Of a stretch of 39,085 nucleotides of DNA, positions 4,250 through 17,868 are shown piece after piece. The stretch spans positions 1-39,085 of the forward strand of contig CAYWCO010000002.1 of NCBI GenBank assembly GCA_964456815.1, written 5' to 3'. Position 1 is the first letter of the stretch. Every line of letters begins with the position of its first letter. The translations under genes and the position numbers were made by a program. Source of the DNA: an uncultured Dehalococcoidales bacterium. Lineage in GTDB: Bacteria > Chloroflexota > Dehalococcoidia > Dehalococcoidales > BS750m-G39. The notes below the pieces were generated by a model, which had not been told where the DNA came from, searched no databases, and saw only the letters and a program-made list of their open reading frames with translations.

Positions 4250-5251
4250 ATGGGATTTGAAACTCAAGACGTTGAAAGAAAGATTATCTCTATCCTGAAG
4301 GTTCTCAGCGATTCTGAGAAGCCCCTGGGTTCCAGGGTGATTGCCCGCCGCTTGAAGGACAGCGGAATTGAGCTGGGCGAGAGGGCGGTGAGATACCACC
4401 TCAAGCTCATGGACGAGCGTGGACTGACGCAGCTTGTCGGGCGGCGGGATGGCCGAGCCCTTACCGATCAAGGTATTGAAGAGATAGAGTATGCCCTGGT
4501 GAAGGACAAGGTTGGTTTTGCTATCTCCAGGATTGAGTTACTCGCCTTTCGTACTGATTTTGATCTGGACAAGCGCACCGGTTCTATTCCAATAAATGTT
4601 TCCTTTTTCCCGAAGGCGAGGTTTAGCCAGGCACTTCAGATAATGAAGCCAGCCTTCAAGGCCGGGCTTGGCGTCAGTGAGCTGGTGGCGGTGGCGCAGG
4701 CAGGCGAAATGCTGGGGGAGATAGCGATACCCCAGGGTAAGGTGGGGTTAGCTACGGTCTGCAGTGTTGTCATAAACGGTATCTTGCTCAAGCTCGGCGT
4801 GCCCATGGACTCTAAGTTCTCGGGCATTCTTCAGATTAGAAATTCAAAGCCTCTTCGCTTTGTTGAGCTTATTCACTATGCCGGGTGTTCTCTTGACCCC
4901 TCGGATGTGTTCATCAGGGCTGGGATGACCTCGGTATCTAAGGTGGTGAGGGAAGGTGGGGGGAATATACTGGCTACCTATCGGGAGATACCGGCACAAT
5001 GCCAGCCGATAATGGAGAAGACGATATCTAGACTGAAAGAGGCTGGTATAGGCGGAGTACTGGTTATGGGGGGTATCAGCGAGCCGGTGTGCGAGATAGC
5101 GGTAGAACTTAATCGAATCGGGATAATCCTTGTCAACGGGCTGAATCCCGTGGCTGCGGCTGTGGAAGCCGGCGTGGAAGTTGAAAATTATGGCATGAGC
5201 ACGGTCATGGAGTACCAGAATTTGATTAATTTTCAGGAGCTTATAAATTGA
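4250..5251 (+). CDS. nrpR: NrpR-type regulator (winged-helix plus one DUF128/NrpR domain), homologue of the methanogen nitrogen repressor
   Basis: An N-terminal winged helix (KIISILKVLSDSEKPLGSRVIARRLKDSGIELGERAVRYHLKLMDERGL) is followed by a ~250-aa domain. This is the architecture of short NrpR proteins. Family recognised from memory, not searched. Confidence 0.65.
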   Translation: MGFETQDVERKIISILKVLSDSEKPLGSRVIARRLKDSGIELGERAVRYHLKLMDERGLTQLVGRRDGRALTDQGIEEIEYALVKDKVGFAISRIELLAFRTDFDLDKRTGSIPINVSFFPKARFSQALQIMKPAFKAGLGVSELVAVAQAGEMLGEIAIPQGKVGLATVCSVVINGILLKLGVPMDSKFSGILQIRNSKPLRFVELIHYAGCSLDPSDVFIRAGMTSVSKVVREGGGNILATYREIPAQCQPIMEKTISRLKEAGIGGVLVMGGISEPVCEIAVELNRIGIILVNGLNPVAAAVEAGVEVENYGMSTVMEYQNLINFQELIN

Positions 5252-7342: not shown

Positions 7343-7388
7343 GTGGGCGGTAGAGGACTTGAACCTCTGACCCCCTGCGTGTAAAGCA
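7343..7388. repeat. 46-bp direct repeat: orphan copy of tRNA-Val positions 30-75 (distal att site of the island)
   Basis: gtgggcggtagaggacttgaacctctgaccccctgcgtgtaaagca is identical to 17794-17839. Identity stops at 7389 (c versus g) and at 7342/17793 (a versus g). Confidence 0.9.
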
Positions 7389-7824: not shown

Positions 7825-9135
7825 ATGGTATCTATCTACTTTGTGGGAACACACAAACCTATAATGTGCGGGATAGCCGACTACACGAGCTTTGTTGCTC
7901 GTGAGATTCCTGCTGGAAGGTGGGGCGTCATATCTTTTGATGTCGAGAGGTATGGCGCGCCACTAATAATTGATGACGAGGTAGTGACAGGTGGGGTTTG
8001 GTACGGCATTCCCGGTCGCCATGAGTTCTCTGCCCCGGTGATTCTGCAGGGGCTTAAAGAACTTGGCGCCAAAAATGAAGACGCCGTCTTGTGGTTTCAG
8101 CATGAGAATGGCATCTGGCCTAGTAGCATACGGTTCACTGCTATGCTCAAGAACCTGAATATACCGAAGGTGGTGACTTTTCACACCCTTCATTTCCAAA
8201 GCTCCGAAACTCTGACCGGCCTACGCAGGGATCAATATGACCTATTGAAAGTCTTGCTGCCTTACGTCGAGGCTATCACCGTTTTCAGCAGCGGCGTTTA
8301 CCATGCCGTCACTTCGGCATTCCCTGAACACCGCGACAAGGTCTATGTCATGAAGCATGGCATAAATCCGTATCCAGAGATAAGTCACCTCAGTCGTAAG
8401 GAGGCTAAAGAGAAACTCAATGACTTCCTGCTCCATGAATCAGGTCTTGACCGGAAAACAAAGGAAGCCCTGGGCAAGCGGCGGATATTTCTTGATTCAG
8501 ACACTGTGGTGGTAGGCCAGACTGGATTCCTGGAACCAGCGAAGAACTCTGAATTGCTTTATTCTGCCAGAGATAGTTTACAGAAGGCTATCCCTCGGCG
8601 GAGAATCGTAGCGGTACGCATTGGTGTCTCAAGAAACGAAGTGCAGAGAATTTACACTGAAAAGCTGCGAAGATGGCAGAATGGGAAGAATAAATTTCTC
8701 CTCGAGGTTCGGCTGCCTCAGGATATACTTCCTCTGACACAGCGGGCTTTCGATGTCAACTTCTACTGGCCTCACGAGTGCACTCAAAGTGGTCTTCTAT
8801 CACACGCTCTGGGTGTCGGTGCCATAGTAGCTTGCCGCGATTTGGAGGGTGTTGGCGAGGCAGTGAAAGAGGCTGGCGGGATTGTGGATACAGACCTAAA
8901 GCATTTGCTGTTTAAGATAACAAACCTCATACTCAACCCGGGTCTTGGAGAAGGGATAGAACAAAGAGCGCTAAGCTATGCTGTAGAGTTCTCCTGGAAA
9001 AACCAAGCTCGGAGACATTATGAGTTGGCTGAGCGTATCTTATCCCCAACGCCTAGACGGTCATCGCCACATTCACCTCCACCGGTGCAGTCTATTGGCA
9101 CCATGGCTACTTCAGCAACTGCGAAGTCCATTTAA
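7825..9135 (+). CDS. divergent GT-B (GT4-like) glycosyltransferase
   Basis: The N-terminus MVSIYFVGTHKPIMCGIADYTSF resembles the ...P.ECGIA.F... start of GT4 mannosyl/glucosyltransferases. The C-terminal half (WPHECTQSGLLSHALGVGAIVACRDLEGVGE) resembles a degenerate EX7E region. No clear SD. Confidence 0.55.
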   Translation: MVSIYFVGTHKPIMCGIADYTSFVAREIPAGRWGVISFDVERYGAPLIIDDEVVTGGVWYGIPGRHEFSAPVILQGLKELGAKNEDAVLWFQHENGIWPSSIRFTAMLKNLNIPKVVTFHTLHFQSSETLTGLRRDQYDLLKVLLPYVEAITVFSSGVYHAVTSAFPEHRDKVYVMKHGINPYPEISHLSRKEAKEKLNDFLLHESGLDRKTKEALGKRRIFLDSDTVVVGQTGFLEPAKNSELLYSARDSLQKAIPRRRIVAVRIGVSRNEVQRIYTEKLRRWQNGKNKFLLEVRLPQDILPLTQRAFDVNFYWPHECTQSGLLSHALGVGAIVACRDLEGVGEAVKEAGGIVDTDLKHLLFKITNLILNPGLGEGIEQRALSYAVEFSWKNQARRHYELAERILSPTPRRSSPHSPPPVQSIGTMATSATAKSI

Positions 9136-9377
9136 TCATTCCAACTCAGGTGTATACTCTTGATACCGCTTCTCTTCATGCTCATACTATAAATCCCTGT
9201 TCAAAGGCATAATACAACTCGTTTTATGGCGGTAACACTAAAGAATTGTCTGGGGAGTTCTCGCTAGGTCAACATAATGCTAAACTAGGGAGACAAGATT
9301 GGCGGATTGCAAAAATATTGTAGTTATGCGAAAATTCCTAGAGTCCTTTTTCGGTATCTATTTTGAAGGAGAATAGC

Positions 9378-12300
9378 GTGAAGGACGTCAATCATATTAC
9401 CTCTTCAGGCTTAAGTTCTCAAACCAGCACCCCTCGGGAAAAGGTAGAAGTAGCCTCTCTCGAGAAAAGTGAGGAATGCTTCAGAGCGGCTATAGCAGAG
9501 CCACTAAGCCAGGCGGAGAAAATAGGCGAGGCTGGTATAGTGGTGGGGATTCCCTTCTATGACGAAGACGATACTATCGGGGCAGTGTTGAAAACGGTAA
9601 GAGAAGGGTTAGAGGAATTTTATCCTGACCAGAAATGCGCCATCGTAGCCGCTGGCTCCCCCGCAGGCGGGAAAGCCCTCAAGGTAGTGAATGACCTTTC
9701 TCAAAGCAGCGAGATAAGCCAGATTGCCTTCTTGCTGAATGATGAAAGGATAAATGGGAAGGGCTGGGCTTTGCGGGCAATTATGGAAGTAGCCCGAATC
9801 CTCGGTGCTGACCTGGCCATCGTGGAAGCTGATTTGAGAAGCCGGGAGAGGAATGGAGAGACTGAAGGACTCGCCCCAGATTGGATTAACCTTCTCCTTG
9901 AACCTATTAAGAGGGAGAAGGCGGATTTAGTTATCTCTCGATTTAACCGCCATTACTTTGAGTCCCCTATTTCCACTCATGTGCTTTATCCACTGCTCAC
10001 CGCGATCTATGGTTGTCCCATTCATGACCTGGTAGGGGGACAATGGGGGATTTCTCACCGCTTGCTTCGAACCTATCTGAAAACCCCGTGGAGTACCGAT
10101 ATTGGAGGCTATGGTATAGATAGCTGGCTGGCTACCATAGCCATTACCAATGAAGCCCTAGTTTGTGAAGCCAACCTGGGAATAAAGGTTCACTGGCCAA
10201 CGGCGGGGAAGGCAGAGCTTGTGCTGCGCAAGCTAGTCAGAGTGCTGTTCGAGCGAATCGTGACTGATAAAAGATGGTGGCGAGAAACAGAGGAGATTGG
10301 CGAGCCACCTTCATTAAAGCCTCTGGCTACCTTCGGGGTCAGGAAGGCACATCAACCCGATGAGGTGCAGATAATTCCTCAGCAACTGATAGCTAGATAT
10401 AAACGAGGGTTCAACGAATTCCATTCCCTTTACCAGAGGATTCTCCCGCAGGAAGTCTACCGACAACTGGAGGAGCTGGCTGGGACCGAGACTAAACGGT
10501 TTGTCTTCCCGGCTCAGTTGTGGGCACAAATTGTCTATCACCTTCTGCTGGATTTTGCTTTTCGACGGGAATTTGCCAAGGACGACCTGCTGAATTCCTT
10601 TATCCCTCTTTATGAGGGGTGCGTGGGCAGCTTTGCCCTGGGAATAAAAGCCCTGAAAAATAGGATAAAACGCTCCCTCCCCCAGGAAGCAGAACGTCTG
10701 GTATCTTTGGAAGCCCAGGGGCAAATAGAGGCGCTGTCGAATGAATTTCTCCGCCAGAAATCAGACTTCCTGGCAACGTGGGAAATGAGGGAGGAAGCCT
10801 TCAAGCCGCCGGTGCCTAAAGTGACCTACCGTGAGTTCATTCCCGGGGTCCCCTTGGTAGTGCCCTCAGAACTCACTACCCCGAAGGGGAAGGTAGTAGC
10901 TACTGCCAATGGCACCTACGATTCCATATTTCATAGATACAAGAGAGAATTTGAACAATTTGTTTATGAAAAGCTGAAAGTCCCCCGAGATGCCAGTTCC
11001 CTGAAAATAGCGGAAGGAATAAGAAATTTCATGCATCGGCTGGAGGCAGAGATAGACAAGACTCTCTTGCCGGGAGAGCTCTCTACCGTAGAAGGAACAC
11101 AGGAGGTAGCCGAGGCCATATTTCGCCACTTCCCCCGTCAGGATAGCTTTGCTTTGATTCCGGAAATGGCTTCCAGGTTTTTGCAGCAATACCCACCCTA
11201 CAATCTGCTGACCAAGCTAGGCTACAGCAACCTTGAGGCACTGCTTAGTCAATATGAACCCAATGATGCTCTAGCCCTAGCTGGTTGGTCAGAAGAGCAA
11301 GAATATGTGGAGCAGATATGGGGGCTAACCAAGAAAAGTGTCCGCCCAGAACATTTTCGAACCCGCCCTGTGAAACCGCTGGTGGTCCGCCATGAAGAAT
11401 TCCCCTCGCTGGTAGAGATGAAAGAAATCGGTGCTCTTAGCAAGATTACTGGGAGGGTAGTAATAAGCAACCTGCACAAGGGCATGGGCGGCGAGTTCCC
11501 CAAATTGCGCTACTTTACCCATATTGCCAAGGCTATTATCGAGATTGAGAGGTTCGGTAAGATATGGCGAAGTTTCGCCGAGGAAAGGAAAGACTTCGGG
11601 GAAAAGGTGATAAATTCACTAGAGGGTCATTGGGGGAGGGAGCCACTATCAGCCCATAATATTTTTGAAAACGGGCATCAGCGGGTGCTGGTAGAGCGGC
11701 TGGGGGAAATGGCGCAGCGAATCACCCAAGAAGCGGGCGGCGATGCCTCTCGCCTGAGCCTGGCTGAACACCTCCAAATTATGGCTGATTCTTATCACCT
11801 GGCTTTTGTCCTTCCCGATGGCACCTTCATCCCCTGCTCCGCCTGGACCTGGGCGAGTTACAGCTTTAATGGGGGAAAAGGATTGCCCCCTCCTCTTTCC
11901 CAGCATGTGGAGCGGGATTGGTCCTCACGGGAATTCCTCACCGAGTATTTCAAAGCGGGTGGAGGCAGGGAGGAAGCAATAGAGGAAAAGATTATAGACC
12001 TTATGGAGGAGGGCAGGGAATGGGAGGATTTAGCTCCGATGCTACTTGGGGAAGTAAAAGAAGCCGAGGGGGTAATGCCAGAAAAAATTGTCACCCCTGG
12101 GCAGCCGCCGGCAGGAGCCCTGAGCCGTTTTGCTGCCAATCCCATACTTGAGCCCATTAAGGAGCACCCATGGGAAGCAAAAAGCGTCTTCAATCCAGGT
12201 GTCATAAATCTAAAGGGCAGGGTTTATCTCATCTATCGGGCTTTGGGAGAGGATAACATCTCTCGCCTTGGACTGGCGGTAAGTAAAGATGGATTTAAGT

Positions 12301-13058
12301 TTACCGAAAGACTCGAAGAACCAATATTTGAGCCAAAGAGAAAGAGTGAAACCAGAGGGTGTGAAGACCCTCGGTTGACCCTAATCGGCGCTCGCCTTTA
12401 CATGGTGTATACCGCTTATGACGGCTTAGTGGCTCAAATTGCCCTCGCCTCCATCGGGGTTAATGATTTCCTGAACCACCGCTGGGGAGCCTGGCATAGA
12501 CACGGTCTGGTTTTCCCCGGCTTCACTGACAAAGACGGTACTTTATTTCCCGAACGCTTCAATGGGCGATTTGCCATGCTTCACCGCGTTGACCCACATA
12601 TATGGATAACCTTTTCTTCCCATCTGCGTTGTCCCTGGCCCCGGAAAGAGCACAAAATAGTGGTCGGGTCAACAACTGGCATGACATGGGATGGGAGGAA
12701 GATTGGTGCTGGGACTCAACCGATTAAGACCAAGTATGGCTGGTTGCTCATCACTCACGGTGCTGACCATTTTCATGTCTATCGGCTAGGGGTGATGCTG
12801 CTTGACTTGAGTGACCCACGAATCCTCCTTTATCGTTCACCCAATTCTATTCTCGAACCCACGGAGAAGTGCGAAATAGGAGAACCCGGTACGCATTGCG
12901 TACCCAATGTGGTTTTTACCTGTGGGGCAGTGCCACGTGAAGGTAACAAAGAGATGCTTGATGCTGAGGACGAAGTGCTAGTTTACTACGGTGCCGCCGA
13001 CTCAGCGGTGGCTGTGGCTACAGCCAAAGTTGCTGACCTCATCCCTGAGGAGTTATGA
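9378..13058 (+). CDS. 1226-aa fusion protein: N-terminal GT-A glycosyltransferase (GpgS/MGS-like), central domain of unknown function, C-terminal GH130 (beta-mannoside phosphorylase-like) domain
   Basis: GTG at 9378 has AAGGAG 7 nt upstream (the ORF-track TTG at 9363 has none). N-terminus: VVGIPFYDEDDTIG, GKGWALR, AIVEADL, PDWI, LVGGQWG, GYGIDSW. C-terminus (~last 330 aa): NPILEPIKEHPWEAKSVFNPGV, GCEDPRL, YMVYTAYDG, VYRLGVMLLDLSDP, VPNVVFTCGAV, VYYGAADS. These are the classic GH130/DUF377 pattern. Confidence 0.7.
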   Translation: MKDVNHITSSGLSSQTSTPREKVEVASLEKSEECFRAAIAEPLSQAEKIGEAGIVVGIPFYDEDDTIGAVLKTVREGLEEFYPDQKCAIVAAGSPAGGKALKVVNDLSQSSEISQIAFLLNDERINGKGWALRAIMEVARILGADLAIVEADLRSRERNGETEGLAPDWINLLLEPIKREKADLVISRFNRHYFESPISTHVLYPLLTAIYGCPIHDLVGGQWGISHRLLRTYLKTPWSTDIGGYGIDSWLATIAITNEALVCEANLGIKVHWPTAGKAELVLRKLVRVLFERIVTDKRWWRETEEIGEPPSLKPLATFGVRKAHQPDEVQIIPQQLIARYKRGFNEFHSLYQRILPQEVYRQLEELAGTETKRFVFPAQLWAQIVYHLLLDFAFRREFAKDDLLNSFIPLYEGCVGSFALGIKALKNRIKRSLPQEAERLVSLEAQGQIEALSNEFLRQKSDFLATWEMREEAFKPPVPKVTYREFIPGVPLVVPSELTTPKGKVVATANGTYDSIFHRYKREFEQFVYEKLKVPRDASSLKIAEGIRNFMHRLEAEIDKTLLPGELSTVEGTQEVAEAIFRHFPRQDSFALIPEMASRFLQQYPPYNLLTKLGYSNLEALLSQYEPNDALALAGWSEEQEYVEQIWGLTKKSVRPEHFRTRPVKPLVVRHEEFPSLVEMKEIGALSKITGRVVISNLHKGMGGEFPKLRYFTHIAKAIIEIERFGKIWRSFAEERKDFGEKVINSLEGHWGREPLSAHNIFENGHQRVLVERLGEMAQRITQEAGGDASRLSLAEHLQIMADSYHLAFVLPDGTFIPCSAWTWASYSFNGGKGLPPPLSQHVERDWSSREFLTEYFKAGGGREEAIEEKIIDLMEEGREWEDLAPMLLGEVKEAEGVMPEKIVTPGQPPAGALSRFAANPILEPIKEHPWEAKSVFNPGVINLKGRVYLIYRALGEDNISRLGLAVSKDGFKFTERLEEPIFEPKRKSETRGCEDPRLTLIGARLYMVYTAYDGLVAQIALASIGVNDFLNHRWGAWHRHGLVFPGFTDKDGTLFPERFNGRFAMLHRVDPHIWITFSSHLRCPWPRKEHKIVVGSTTGMTWDGRKIGAGTQPIKTKYGWLLITHGADHFHVYRLGVMLLDLSDPRILLYRSPNSILEPTEKCEIGEPGTHCVPNVVFTCGAVPREGNKEMLDAEDEVLVYYGAADSAVAVATAKVADLIPEEL

Positions 13059-13359: not shown

Positions 13360-16068
13360 GTGAAAGAGCAATGGCATAATCTCAGCCCAGATGAAGCGTT
13401 GCTAGTACTTAATTCCAAGCACTCTGGACTAACTGAAACCGAGGCTCAGGCACAGTTAGTTCGATACGGCCCCAATGAGTTAAAGGGCAAGAGGAAAACC
13501 CCACCAATCCTGGTTTTCCTCAGACAGTTCCTTAGTCCACTTATATACGTACTCCTTCTCGCCGCTATAATCTCAATCGTTGTGGAGCACTTCATTGATG
13601 CTGGGGTAATACTGGGAGTGCTGTTACTCAATGCTGTTGTTGGCTTCACGCAGGAAACGCGAGCGGAGAAAGCTATGGAAGCTCTCAAGCGGATGGCGGC
13701 ACCCAGGGCGAGTGTAAGACGTGAGAGCAAGGTAAGGGAGATACCAACCAGAGAAATAGTACCCGGGGATATACTGCTCCTTGAAACCGGCGATAGAGTA
13801 CCCGCCGATGCCAGGCTAATAGAGGTATCAAATTTAAAGGTGAATGAAGCAACACTCACTGGCGAATCAATAGCTGTAGATAAGCATACCAAACCCGTCT
13901 CTGAAGAAGCGCCTCTAGCCGAGAGAAAGAACATGATATATACGGGCACCATCATTACCTATGGAAGAGCCACGGCTGTAGCTGTGAAAACTGGCTTGTC
14001 GACAGAGATAGGCAAAATTGTCACCACTATTCAGGAAGTCGAGACCCCAAAAACACCACTCCAGCAGAACATAAGGAAGCTTAGCCAGTATATCCTTGTC
14101 CTCTTCCTAGGAATTTGTGCTCTGCTGATAGTTGTCGGAGTGCTCAAAGGGATAGGGTGGCTGGAAATCTTTTTGGTAGCCGTCGCTGCTGCCGTCTCAG
14201 CCATACCTGAAGGATTACCAGCGGTTGTGACCGTTGTTCTGGCGATAGGCATGCATATGATGGCCAATCGTAATGCCATCATCCGCAAGTTGGTAGCCGT
14301 CGAAACCCTGGGTTCAGCTACTGCCATCTGTTCTGATAAGACAGGTACCCTGACTCTAAACGAGATGACGGCACGGCGTCTTTATGTCAGCGGTCAGTGG
14401 ATTGAGTTAACCGGTGAAGGTTATGAGCCAAAGGGAGAATTTCGCCAGGAAGGAAAGAGCCTGCATCCGCAAGATAAGCCACCTTTAACTTTGCTCTTAA
14501 AGATAGGAACCCTGTGCAATGACGCTCTGCTCACCAAGGAGGATGGGGGTTTCAGTATTTTGGGGGATCCAACCGAAGGCGCTCTGTTAGTAGCTGCGGC
14601 CAAGGCGGGAACGAACAAGGAAAAGCTAGAAAAAACCTTTCCTCGCCTCGATGAAATTCCCTTCCAGAGCGAAAAGCAATACATGGCTACCCTCCACCCC
14701 CAAGATGGAGGTCGAGTGGTCTATGTAAAGGGAGCAACCGAAAGGCTACTGTCCCTCAGTAAGTATCTCCTAAAAGAGAACGGAATTGCCCTCCTCGGCG
14801 AATCCGACGTTGAGGCTATTATGCAGGTTAACCTTTCTATGGCAAAAGAAGCCATGAGGGTCATCGCTATTGCCTATGCTGACCTTCCCGCCGAATTAGA
14901 AGAGCTGAAAGACGAAGACATCAGGGGCAACCTAGTTTTTGTTGGGCTGGTGGGGATGGATGATCCGCCCCGTGAGGAAGCCAAAGAGGCAGTAAGGCTT
15001 TGCAAGCAGGCCGGTATCAAAGTAATCATGATTACCGGTGACCACGAGGTGACGGCTGAGTCGGTGGCTCGCCAGCTGGGTTTACCACCGGGCAAAGCTA
15101 TAACCGGTGCTGAACTCAAGGAAATGAGCGATGAAGAATTATCAAGGCAAGTAGAGGATACTTTCGTTTTTGCCCGGATTGAGCCACTACAGAAGTTCAG
15201 GATAGTAAACGCGCTCAAAAGCCGAGGGCATGTTGTCGCCATGACGGGGGACGGGGTTAATGATGCCCCGGCTCTGAAAACAGCTAATATCGGCATTGCT
15301 ATGGGTATCACCGGCACTGATGTAGCCAAGGAAGCCTGCGACATGGTACTGGCTGATGATAACTTTGCCTCGATTGTGGCTGCCGTTGATGAAGGCAGGG
15401 CAATTTTCAACCGCCTGCGCAATGTGATTTTCTTCTTACTGAGCACTAACCTCGGAGAGCTACTGGCACTGCTCTTAGCCGTTACCTTTATTGGTAAAGC
15501 ACCGCTACTAGCCGTGCAGATTATCTGGGTTAATTTGGCTACCGACACGGCAGTGACTATCCCACTGGGGCTGGAGCCAAAATTCGGCGATGAACTCAAA
15601 TACCCTCCCCGCCACCCAAAAGCAGGCCTCATCTTCCCCGGGCTTCTCCTCCGTGTTGGCTTCCTGGCTCTAATGATGGGTGCGGGTATATTCTTAATCT
15701 TCAATTGGGCGCTCCCCAGGGTAGGCCTTGAAGAAGCCCGCACTCTTGTCTTTTGCTCACTGGTTGCATTTGAATGGTTCAGAGCTTTTAACGCACGCTC
15801 GGATGAATATACTATCTTCAGGCTGGGTGTATTCCGCAACCGCTGGCTGGTCATTTCCATCTCGGCAGCTATTATATTGCAGCTAGCTATTGTCTATGTG
15901 CCCTTTCTTCAGGTGGCTTTCGGTACAGTGCCTCTAACTATTAACCAGTGGGGTATTGTTATACTGGCCGGTTGCTCTCCCTTTATTATCGATGAAGTTC
16001 GTAAAGTCTTTTTCCCACAGCTCTTTACATTAGGGAAATGGAGACCATGGCGAAAATCAGCTATCTAG
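13360..16068 (+). CDS. P2-type (SERCA/PMCA-like, Ca2+/cation) P-type ATPase
   Basis: Motifs [32 protein letters not shown], and the TM4 motif [11 protein letters not shown] at 13360 is the first possible start, because an in-frame TGA lies 6 nt upstream. Confidence 0.9.
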
Positions 16069-16172: not shown

Positions 16173-16661
16173 CTATCTTCGCCACTTACCGAACGATATG
16201 CGGTATAGTAAGCAGTCCCAAGAGTTTCCTAGTAGGTTGCCAAGCCGAATCATTCGAAGCATTAAGTGAATGGCTTCTACCTTTTCAAAGCCATATGTCT
16301 GCTGCAACTTTTGGACGGCTTCGGGGTCAGGATGAGCATTGGATTCAGCCCAGTGCTGCGCATAGATTACAGCCACAGCCTCCTCTTCTGGACAACTATC
16401 AACATCTCCTGACAGTAGCTGGCTAATCTCTTCCGGGGTAACCCCGCTTTTCAGCGCTTGCTTGGTATGGAAGTAGGAACAATAACGGCAACCTTCTACT
16501 GCGGTTACAGCCAGCATGAGCCTTTCCTGGAAAGCCGGTGATATTAACCCCTTATTCTTTACTTCCTTCAGTCGCTTTCTGTTTCTAATTGGAAAGCACA
16601 AGTCGCTAAATAATTCTTTCGGGTTGTTATATGTTCTTTTGTTGAATTTCATAACCAGCAC
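16173..16661 (-). CDS. carboxymuconolactone decarboxylase / AhpD-like family protein
   Basis: EGCRYCSYFH (CxxCxxxH) sits in an all-helical ~160-aa protein. The gene is convergent with the ATPase gene. Confidence 0.7.
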   Translation of the reverse strand: MLVMKFNKRTYNNPKELFSDLCFPIRNRKRLKEVKNKGLISPAFQERLMLAVTAVEGCRYCSYFHTKQALKSGVTPEEISQLLSGDVDSCPEEEAVAVIYAQHWAESNAHPDPEAVQKLQQTYGFEKVEAIHLMLRMIRLGNLLGNSWDCLLYRISFGKWRR

Positions 16662-17118: not shown

Positions 17119-17682
17119 CTACCGATAGCAGGCTGAGCACTCTAGACTGAGCATGCTCGGCTGAGGGTGCTGGGATGAGCAGGCTAAAGCCATTGTTCTA
17201 TGGGGTGACTGAGGCTGAAAATACAGGTGCTGGGAGTACTCACTAACGGCTTCACTTGAATAAGGCTGAACGACGTTCAGCTTTGGGTTTTTCAACTTGA
17301 TTTTAGCCAGAGGACTTTCCAGGATAAAGCTTTCCCTGACGCACCAGTTGAAGAAAGCCTTAAGAACGCAGTAGTAGTGGTGGACTGTGCAGTAGGTGGC
17401 CTTTGTCCGGCTTGACTCTGATCCGTTACCTTCAAGCCCCCATCGGTTCCCTTCTCCTGATACATAGGCTAAAAATTCCCTGATATGCCATTCTGTAATC
17501 ATGTGGACATCTTCAGGCCATTCTTGCCTTTCCGCGTACCACAGGAAACGCCGTAGATTGCTTTCATAATACTCAATAGTGCGGGGGCTTTTACAGTCGG
17601 TGCGCTGGGTGAGGATAAATCCTTTAACGAGAGAGTTAAGAGACGTACTGACGGGTGCTTGTGGTCTTATAGACACAACCAT
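17119..17682 (-). pseudogene. tyrosine recombinase/phage integrase, N-terminal SAM-like domain only (catalytic domain missing)
   Basis: SPRTIEYYESNLRRFLWYA...ITEWHIREFLAYV...KATYCTVHHYYCVLKAFFNWCVRE is typical of the integrase core-binding domain. After ~aa 145 the ORF becomes unrelated sequence and stops at 187 aa. No R..HxxR..Y catalytic region follows. Confidence 0.7.
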
Positions 17683-17791: not shown

Positions 17792-17868
17792 TGGTGGGCG
17801 GTAGAGGACTTGAACCTCTGACCCCCTGCGTGTAAAGCAGGTGCTCTAACCAACTGAGCTAACCGCCC
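17792..17868 (-). tRNA. tRNA-Val(TAC), CCA encoded
   Basis: The reverse complement is GGGCGGTTAGCTCAGTTGGTTAGAGCACCTGCTTTACACGCAGGGGGTCAGAGGTTCAAGTCCTCTACCGCCCACCA. It folds by hand into a cloverleaf with anticodon loop TTTACAC. Confidence 0.9.
17794..17839. repeat. 46-bp direct repeat within the intact tRNA-Val (proximal att site)
   Basis: Identical to 7343-7388. Confidence 0.9.

Follow-up and report, generated by a model that had tools for sequence, protein, structure and literature searches.

The window analysed here, a 39,085-nucleotide stretch of contig CAYWCO010000002.1 from an uncultured Dehalococcoidales bacterium (assembly GCA_964456815.1), carries a gene whose product is probably, to judge from its sequence, a cytoplasmic enzyme built of three modules. 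These are an N-terminal glycosyltransferase of the glucosylglycerate/mannosylglycerate-synthase type (module N), a conserved domain to which no function is assigned (module X) and a C-terminal module resembling the beta-1,2-mannoside phosphorylases of glycoside hydrolase family GH130. A divergent glycosyltransferase of the GT4 type is encoded directly upstream on the same strand, and both genes lie on a genomic island (Table 1). We see about an even chance that the fusion enzyme and this partner build, and by phosphorolysis recycle, a glycerate-anchored mannoside or a beta-1,2-manno-oligosaccharide; the product would be a small solute or a reserve oligomer.

Residue numbers of the fusion protein are counted throughout from TTG 9363, where the open frame begins. 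The likely start is GTG 9378, because a Shine-Dalgarno sequence (AAGGAG, 9366-9371) lies 6 nt ahead of it. Both open reading frames (ORFs) were found where an earlier reading of the bare DNA letters (the sequence-only reading) had placed them, and the 1226 amino acids that it gave for the fusion protein match a start at this GTG. Inspection of the fusion protein by eye revealed neither a signal peptide nor a membrane segment.

Table 1. Features of the fusion gene, its partner and the surrounding island (positions in the window)
Feature	Position	Strand	Description
GT4-type (GT-B) partner gene, divergent	7825..9135	+	436 aa; same strand as fusion gene
Fusion gene	9378..13058	+	1226 aa from GTG 9378; open frame from TTG 9363, 1231 aa
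Module N	9498..10802	+	aa ~46-480; retaining GT-A domain plus helical subdomain, glucosylglycerate/mannosylglycerate-synthase-like
Module X	10815..12077	+	aa ~485-905; conserved domain, function unassigned
GH130 module	12111..13049	+	aa ~917-1229; beta-1,2-mannoside-phosphorylase-like
Left boundary repeat	7343..7388		direct repeat of att type; duplicates 46 nt of the tRNA-Val 3' part without mismatch
P-type cation ATPase (island cargo)	13360..16068	+	902 aa; E1-E2 type, Cation_ATPase N- and C-terminal domains
CMD-family gene (island cargo)	16173..16661	-	carboxymuconolactone decarboxylase-like
Tyrosine-integrase remnant	17119..17682	-	N-terminal SAM-like domain only; adjoins tRNA-Val
tRNA-Val(tac), integration target	17792..17868	-	right-hand repeat at 17794-17839

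The GH130 module matched Pfam family PF04041 over residues 936-1226 (184 bits, E 4e-54), the alignment running from position 29 to 314 of the 320 in the profile, i.e. across the whole five-bladed propeller. Its nearest solved proteins are 9fj8 (Teth514_1788, a 1,2-beta-oligomannan phosphorylase, 43% identical; E 5e-55) and 7fip (Teth514_1789; E 1e-53), and the best NCBIfam model was that of beta-1,2-mannobiose phosphorylase (NF052550), with 244 bits against an equivalog cut-off of 450. The claim of the sequence-only reading that the domain is complete and keeps its catalytic aspartate was borne out: GCEDPR occupies residues 999-1004, with D1002 as the predicted proton donor, and the predicted phosphate-binding pair R1075/H1132 is retained, all three residues aligning with identical residues of Teth514_1788. 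R959 and D1213 are predicted +1-subsite residues. These roles were taken from Table 2 of PMC7660257, positions of Uhgb_MP being mapped by way of the Teth514_1788 alignment and motif spacing (18 residues from K to R in both proteins), so that the mapping is itself inferential. According to the same source, phosphorylases are told from hydrolases by having the proton-donor Asp and an Arg/His phosphate pair and by lacking a signal peptide, and the beta-1,2 clade is marked by a Glu before the catalytic Asp together with a Lys at the position of Uhgb_MP R150 (PMC7660257). By residue comparison, the module shows all the phosphorylase features as well as the beta-1,2 signature, in the form of the pair E1001/K1057, both members of which are 100% conserved; across 135 sequences, conservation of the key residues R959, E1001, D1002, K1057, R1075, H1132 and D1213 is 99-100%. 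Phosphorylase-type GH130 enzymes are described as intracellular (PMC7660257, PMC4264767), and those of the beta-1,2 type can also use GDP-mannose, weakly (PMC12814180).

Module N is a retaining GT-A glycosyltransferase of the glucosylglycerate/mannosylglycerate-synthase type, an assignment that the sequence-only reading had suggested from the order of motifs and that became clear by fold. In Foldseek searches, the model of N matched the Rhodothermus mannosylglycerate synthase (MGS; 2y4j/2bo7) over the whole target (E 1e-10, target-normalized TM 0.74-0.76) and, more weakly, Mycobacterium tuberculosis GpgS (4dec; E 2e-7, target-normalized TM ~0.61) and then MpgS. Because the match to MGS extends to about residue 480, residues ~330-480 can be assigned to N as its helical subdomain. 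The underlying AlphaFold2 model of residues 40-905 reached a mean pLDDT of 87.8 and is divided by a low-confidence linker near residues 481-489; its pTM of 0.54 makes the relative orientation of N and X unreliable. Profile hidden Markov model (HMM) searches, by which the sequence-only reading had expected both catalytic domains to be recognized, did so for GH130 alone, the GT-A domain remaining sub-threshold by sequence. It scored 18.4 bits against the Pfam GT2 threshold of 23.3 (E 2e-3) and 11 bits against the cut-off of 262 for NCBIfam GpgS (NF010496; E 0.15), had no match to Pfam MGS_GT, and is 13-21% identical to the solved MGS and GpgS.

An exhaustive search with residues 40-905 returned 1205 cluster representatives, many of them stand-alone relatives of N (~400-430 amino acids) that align to query positions ~10-400 at ~30% identity. 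These stand-alone proteins match Pfam MGS_GT (E 1e-7), GT2 and NCBIfam GpgS (E 1e-17); their family is very large, comprising > 6600 clusters at 90% identity, and two of its members carry the JGI annotation glucosylglycerate synthase, a label rather than a tested function. All the GT-A motifs listed in the sequence-only reading are present at residues 131-277 and conserved among 180 N modules, fused and stand-alone, with around 90% or greater conservation of G132-K133-G134, (E/D)155-x-D157, R196-H197, G251-x-D253 and K275. The window protein carries E155-A-D157 and K275-x-H277. The metal ligands are D136/H258 in GpgS and D102/H217 in MGS (PMC2581804), and by motif position D157 and H277 would be their counterparts, i.e. 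the second Asp of the DXD motif and the metal-binding His. Among the 141 long and 29 stand-alone forms, 133 and 28, respectively, have D157. H277 occurs in just as many stand-alone proteins (28 of 29) and in 87 of the 141 long ones, including that of the window; ~38% of long fusions have another residue there. Two further relatives join N to other domains, namely to a DUF4147/MOFRL protein of the glycerate-kinase type (P0163) and to a HAD phosphatase (P0185), and these fusions suggest that the acceptor chemistry of the clade involves glycerate or phosphoglycerate.

The sequence-only reading had described a middle region of ~550 amino acids that it could assign to no family. Such a region does exist, at a reduced size of ~420 amino acids (485-905), the stretch ahead of it belonging to N. 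Modelled alone (residues 485-910), X gave a pLDDT of 89.4 and a pTM of 0.89; the predicted fold consists largely of helices, apart from a small sheet at the N-terminus and two hairpins. The domain is undescribed in all the libraries searched: the best Foldseek matches had E 0.28 (TM < 0.17) against the PDB and E 0.098 against BFVD, a Pfam scan of 20 diverse members (E up to 10) yielded nothing recurrent, Pfam and NCBIfam gave no match to the window sequence, and two family profiles had no significant match among PDB sequences (best E 0.07). X is also among the best-conserved parts of the protein, with about 35 polar or aromatic residues conserved at 88% or more in 146 sequences whose identity falls to 27%. 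Residues conserved at 88-100% include K706, G709, G710, R716, Y717, E727, E729, W735, H756, W757, S763, H765, E769, Y811, H812, D819, C825, S826, W828, W830, E850, R851 and W853. In the model, most of these residues are placed in loops or at the ends of helices of the C-terminal half, a clustering that suggests a ligand-binding or catalytic pocket. Large, well conserved and confidently modelled, X is a candidate new family of carbohydrate-active proteins.

Several identities for X were considered and dropped. A nucleotidyltransferase linking mannose-1-phosphate (Man1P) to GDP-mannose is at odds with the fold, which does not resemble a Rossmann fold, and with the Bacillota loci, where ManC has a gene of its own; neither a CX5R nor an RHG motif was seen by eye, as would be expected of a Cys- or His-phosphatase; and Foldseek returned no toroid match of the kind expected for an (alpha/alpha)6 epimerase or hydrolase.

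The fusion is not a chance joining of genes, since at least 120 full-length homologues at 55-92% identity occur among the matches listed, all under generic names (e.g. 'glycosidase'). Altogether, more than 170 full-length homologues were found across Dehalococcoidia, methanogen-related archaea, Bacillota and other lineages. A survey of genomes for the same fusion, made as a scan of GTDB species representatives, found it at 80 loci in several phyla. Most of these loci are from Dehalococcoidia, with others from Methanomicrobia, relatives of methanogens from bogs and fens, Methanophagales, Moorellales, Dethiobacter, Halanaerobiales, Desulfobacterales and Bipolaricaulota. This breadth of conservation led us to reject the notion of a fusion restricted to the island of the window. 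No cultured carrier was found in three protein searches and the GTDB scan, all matches being metagenome-assembled or single-amplified genomes (MAGs or SAGs). Several genomes hold two or three diverged copies of the fusion (L013/L021, L018/L030/L035, L025/L028, L022/L044 and L024/L046; three in JABMQN bin.164), and such multiplicity within a MAG suggests paralogous specialization or repeated acquisition.

When 150 representatives were searched with local HMMs for the three modules, several architectures emerged. N alone was found in 94 representatives, N-X in 18 (some of them complete proteins of ~870-890 amino acids), N-X-GH130 in about 13, X-GH130 in seven and GH130-GH130-X in one (P0146). 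One X-GH130 protein, P0143, comes from a complete gene that lacks a neighbouring N gene; N-X is also found fused to a TreT-like GT4 domain (P0125, P0141), and the N-X proteins lacking GH130 include P0121, P0137 and P0138. As X thus occurs without GH130, without N and in N-X-GT4 proteins, it is an autonomous module that travels with sugar-transferring domains.

A GT4-like gene lies upstream, as the sequence-only reading had recognized. Its product falls short of the gathering score of Pfam Glyco_transf_4 (23.7 against 28.5 bits, E 5.5e-5), while 15 of 27 family members match this model (best E 8e-13) and only four match Glycos_transf_1. A search of PDB sequences with the partner returned no match, so it has no detectable similarity to a solved GT4 enzyme. 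Around residues 318-347, the usual EX7E motif is apparently replaced, by eye, by QSG...SHALG...EGVGE. Judging from its sequence, the partner may not be an ordinary Leloir GT4 enzyme; the GT4 family also includes retaining phosphorylases.

Clustering the ORFs of the GTDB-scan loci, 58 of which have enough flanking sequence, showed that, of the neighbouring genes, only one for a GT-B glycosyltransferase is widely conserved. In 40 of the 58 it is found no more than 700 bp from the fusion, usually directly upstream and on the same strand; at a few loci it is a member of either of two other GT-B families. The partner encoded at about a dozen loci (L001:5405-7690, L007:3495-5816, L079:1819-4089 and others) is a protein of ~760 amino acids, consisting of a GT4 domain and a C-terminal domain of ~350 amino acids without a Pfam match; it is ~21% identical to the window partner and often divergently oriented or downstream. 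Genes for ManC, a mannose-6-phosphate isomerase cupin and a phosphoglucomutase/phosphomannomutase (PGM/PMM) adjoin the fusion in four Bacillota loci and tie the system to GDP-mannose and Man1P. In a Guaymas 'Deltaproteobacteria' MAG, the GT4-like partner (L055:308-2035) carries, at its C-terminus, a dual-specificity-phosphatase domain whose CX5R motif reads CRYGKGR, and is followed by a second GT4-like gene and then by the fusion gene; the phosphatase domain hints at a phosphorylated intermediate. Stand-alone GH130 paralogues of 312-326 amino acids adjoin the fusion at L021:3080-4060, L045:4958-5896 and L075:10629-11597, recalling the split of chain lengths between the two enzymes Teth514_1788 and Teth514_1789.

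In the reading to which we give even chances, N would transfer a hexose from a nucleoside-diphosphate (NDP) sugar, likeliest GDP-mannose or ADP/UDP-glucose, to D-glycerate or 3-phosphoglycerate, forming an alpha-hexosyl-glycerate. The GH130 module would move mannose reversibly between alpha-Man1P and the 2-OH of this glycoside or of a growing beta-1,2 chain, lengthening the chain where Man1P is plentiful and freeing Man1P at high phosphate. The GT4-type partner would attach a further sugar, and X, situated between or beside the catalytic modules, might bind or modify the intermediate. Such a module for mannose- and glycerate-based synthesis and phosphorolysis is supported by the fusions of N to glycerate-kinase and HAD proteins, by the ManC and PMM genes of the Bacillota loci and by the Glu/Lys pair of GH130. 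Several points weigh against it. To our knowledge, no glycerate-linked beta-mannoside has been described from these organisms, and no characterised member of the family was found in the literature on GT81 with GH130 or on GH130 with Dehalococcoidia. Given its low identity and sub-threshold scores, N does not allow donor or acceptor to be read from its sequence, and by its bit score the GH130 module is a relative, not a member, of the beta-1,2-mannobiose phosphorylase equivalog. No activity can be assigned to X, whose role might be purely structural, and the GT-B gene is not adjacent in 18 of the 58 loci, archaeal ones included.

Some of the same evidence would fit a salvage or catabolic channel, which we regard as unlikely. 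Here GH130 would only degrade beta-1,2-manno-oligosaccharides, imported or derived from another polymer of the cell, to Man1P; a separate ManC would convert this to GDP-mannose, and the glycosyltransferase modules would use it for an ordinary solute such as mannosylglycerate, so that the fusion would couple ATP-free activation of mannose to solute synthesis and no new glycoside would be made. This is the role proposed for Teth514_1788/1789, encoded beside ManC and a GT4 gene (PMC4264767), and the ManC and PMM genes next to the fusion in Bacillota agree with it. However, no conserved transporter or secreted glycosidase was found beside the fusion in the 80 loci, and none is present on the island; moreover, fusing a phosphorylase to a transferase while ManC remains separate offers no obvious channelling.

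We hold it to be distinctly improbable that GH130 is the sole catalytic module, N and X being degenerate or regulatory parts that serve oligomerization, allosteric sensing of NDP-sugar or glycerate, or localization. The sub-threshold scores of N, the loss of H277 from a good part of the long fusions and the lack of a recognizable catalytic fold in X would be in keeping with this. Against it stand the (E/D)xD, GKG, RH and GxD motifs, at least 90% conserved in fusion and stand-alone forms alike, the existence of N-X proteins without GH130 and of N-X-GT4, and the near-invariant polar and aromatic residues that X keeps even in its most distant members. The assembly of an envelope or S-layer glycan, in which the modules and the GT4-type partner would make a surface glycan that contains beta-mannose and is carried by a lipid or protein, is very unlikely: although envelope glycan loci often contain GT-A and GT4 pairs and JGI labels stand-alone relatives 'glycosyltransferase involved in cell wall biosynthesis', the fusion protein has no visible export or membrane segment, no flippase, polymerase or polyprenyl-phosphate glycosyltransferase is conserved nearby in the clustered loci, the enzymes that N resembles in fold use glycerate or phosphoglycerate, and phosphorylase-type GH130 enzymes are described as intracellular.

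Several known systems resemble parts of the proposed synthesis-and-recycling system. With Teth514_1788/1789 of Thermoanaerobacter, the GH130 module has in common the EDPR proton-donor motif, the Arg/His phosphate pair and the Glu/Lys beta-1,2 pair; those enzymes are single-domain proteins of ~300 amino acids, whereas here GH130 forms the C-terminal third of a much larger chain. Their genes lie beside GT4 and ManC genes (PMC4264767), and the fusion gene of the window is also beside a GT4-type gene. The MGS of Rhodothermus marinus (GT78; 2bo4, 2y4j) and the GT81 synthases (4dec) combine a GT-A fold with a C-terminal helical subdomain, as does N; unlike them, N is always followed by X in the fusion family. 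The pathway for mannosylglucosylglycerate (MGG) in Petrotoga mobilis and Rhodopirellula baltica comprises GpgS (GT81), MggA (GT4) and a phosphatase and uses GDP-mannose and a glycerate-derived acceptor, gpgS and mggA being adjacent in Petrotoga (PMC3736172). A GT81-type gene adjoins a GT4 gene there, much as the fusion gene, with its GT81-like module, lies beside a GT4-type gene here, and the L055 partner includes a phosphatase domain; the mannosyl linkage of MGG, however, is alpha and made by a Leloir enzyme, whereas the present system includes an inverting beta-mannoside phosphorylase and X. In the Leishmania mannogen system, with its GH130-like GT108 mannosyltransferase/phosphorylases, and in dual-activity GH130 enzymes such as Uhgb_MS, one GH130-type site both builds and degrades an intracellular beta-1,2-mannoside, from GDP-mannose or Man1P (PMC12814180). 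These are single-domain proteins, without a fused primer-making glycosyltransferase or X. A precedent for a Leloir glycosyltransferase and a glycoside-phosphorylase domain in one polypeptide is the cyclic beta-1,2-glucan synthase Cgs, in which a GH94 phosphorylase domain, joined to GT84, trims the product or controls it. Cgs differs in its families (GT84/GH94 rather than GT81-like/GH130), in being a membrane protein that handles glucose and in lacking X.

The sequence-only reading had presented the fusion as an undescribed module. This is right insofar as no characterization of it was found and X is undescribed, but the architecture itself appears to be catalogued already: only six of 1592 GH130 entries in CAZy are multimodular, in the combinations 'GH130-GT81' and 'GH130-GH130', more than 99% of GH130 phosphorylases being single-domain (PMC7660257, 2020); those entries may be members of the present fusion family. 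That a module so rarely combined is here fused to a primer-type glycosyltransferase suggests a built-in cycle of beta-mannoside synthesis and recycling. We know of no such cycle in bacteria or archaea. The carriers are abundant and mostly uncultured anaerobes, i.e. Dehalococcoidia, relatives of methanogens from peat and bogs, ANME-1-type archaea and subsurface Bacillota, about whose ways of storing carbon and adapting to osmotic stress little is known. Chemical synthesis of beta-mannosidic bonds is difficult, and a single chain that may combine acceptor synthesis with beta-1,2-mannosylation could find synthetic use.

A bolder version of this proposal, which we consider doubtful, holds that X is a new catalytic or carbohydrate-binding fold and that N-X-GH130 and the GT4-type partner constitute a new pathway for an intracellular beta-1,2-mannan or oligomannoside primed on a glycosyl-glycerate, spread as a mobile two-gene cassette. 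If true, prokaryotes would have their own equivalent of Leishmania mannogen, built on a glycerate primer like that of the mycobacterial methylglucose lipopolysaccharide (MGLP), and Dehalococcoidia, methanogen-related archaea and anaerobic Bacillota would possess a polymer charged and discharged via Man1P without ATP cost.

The two genes lie within a decayed, tRNA-integrated island of ~10.45 kb, and the proposal of the sequence-only reading that they were horizontally acquired is upheld by the tRNA-Val repeats that bound it (100% identical to each other), by the integrase fragment and by a GC content of 0.47-0.51 inside against 0.53-0.58 outside. No ORF for the integrase catalytic domain follows the remnant, and with only its N-terminal domain left the island looks immobilized. 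Other Dehalococcoidales contigs share only the two-gene cassette of GT4-like and fusion genes, with 91-93% nucleotide identity in L002, L004 and L005, the flanks of which differ from those of the window. The P-type ATPase gene is outside this conserved cassette and is common to only one of the related loci, L072. Just outside the island, at 4250-5251, a gene for an NrpR-type nitrogen repressor lies by a Glu_synthase-domain gene, hisF and a gene of the ELFV dehydrogenase family.

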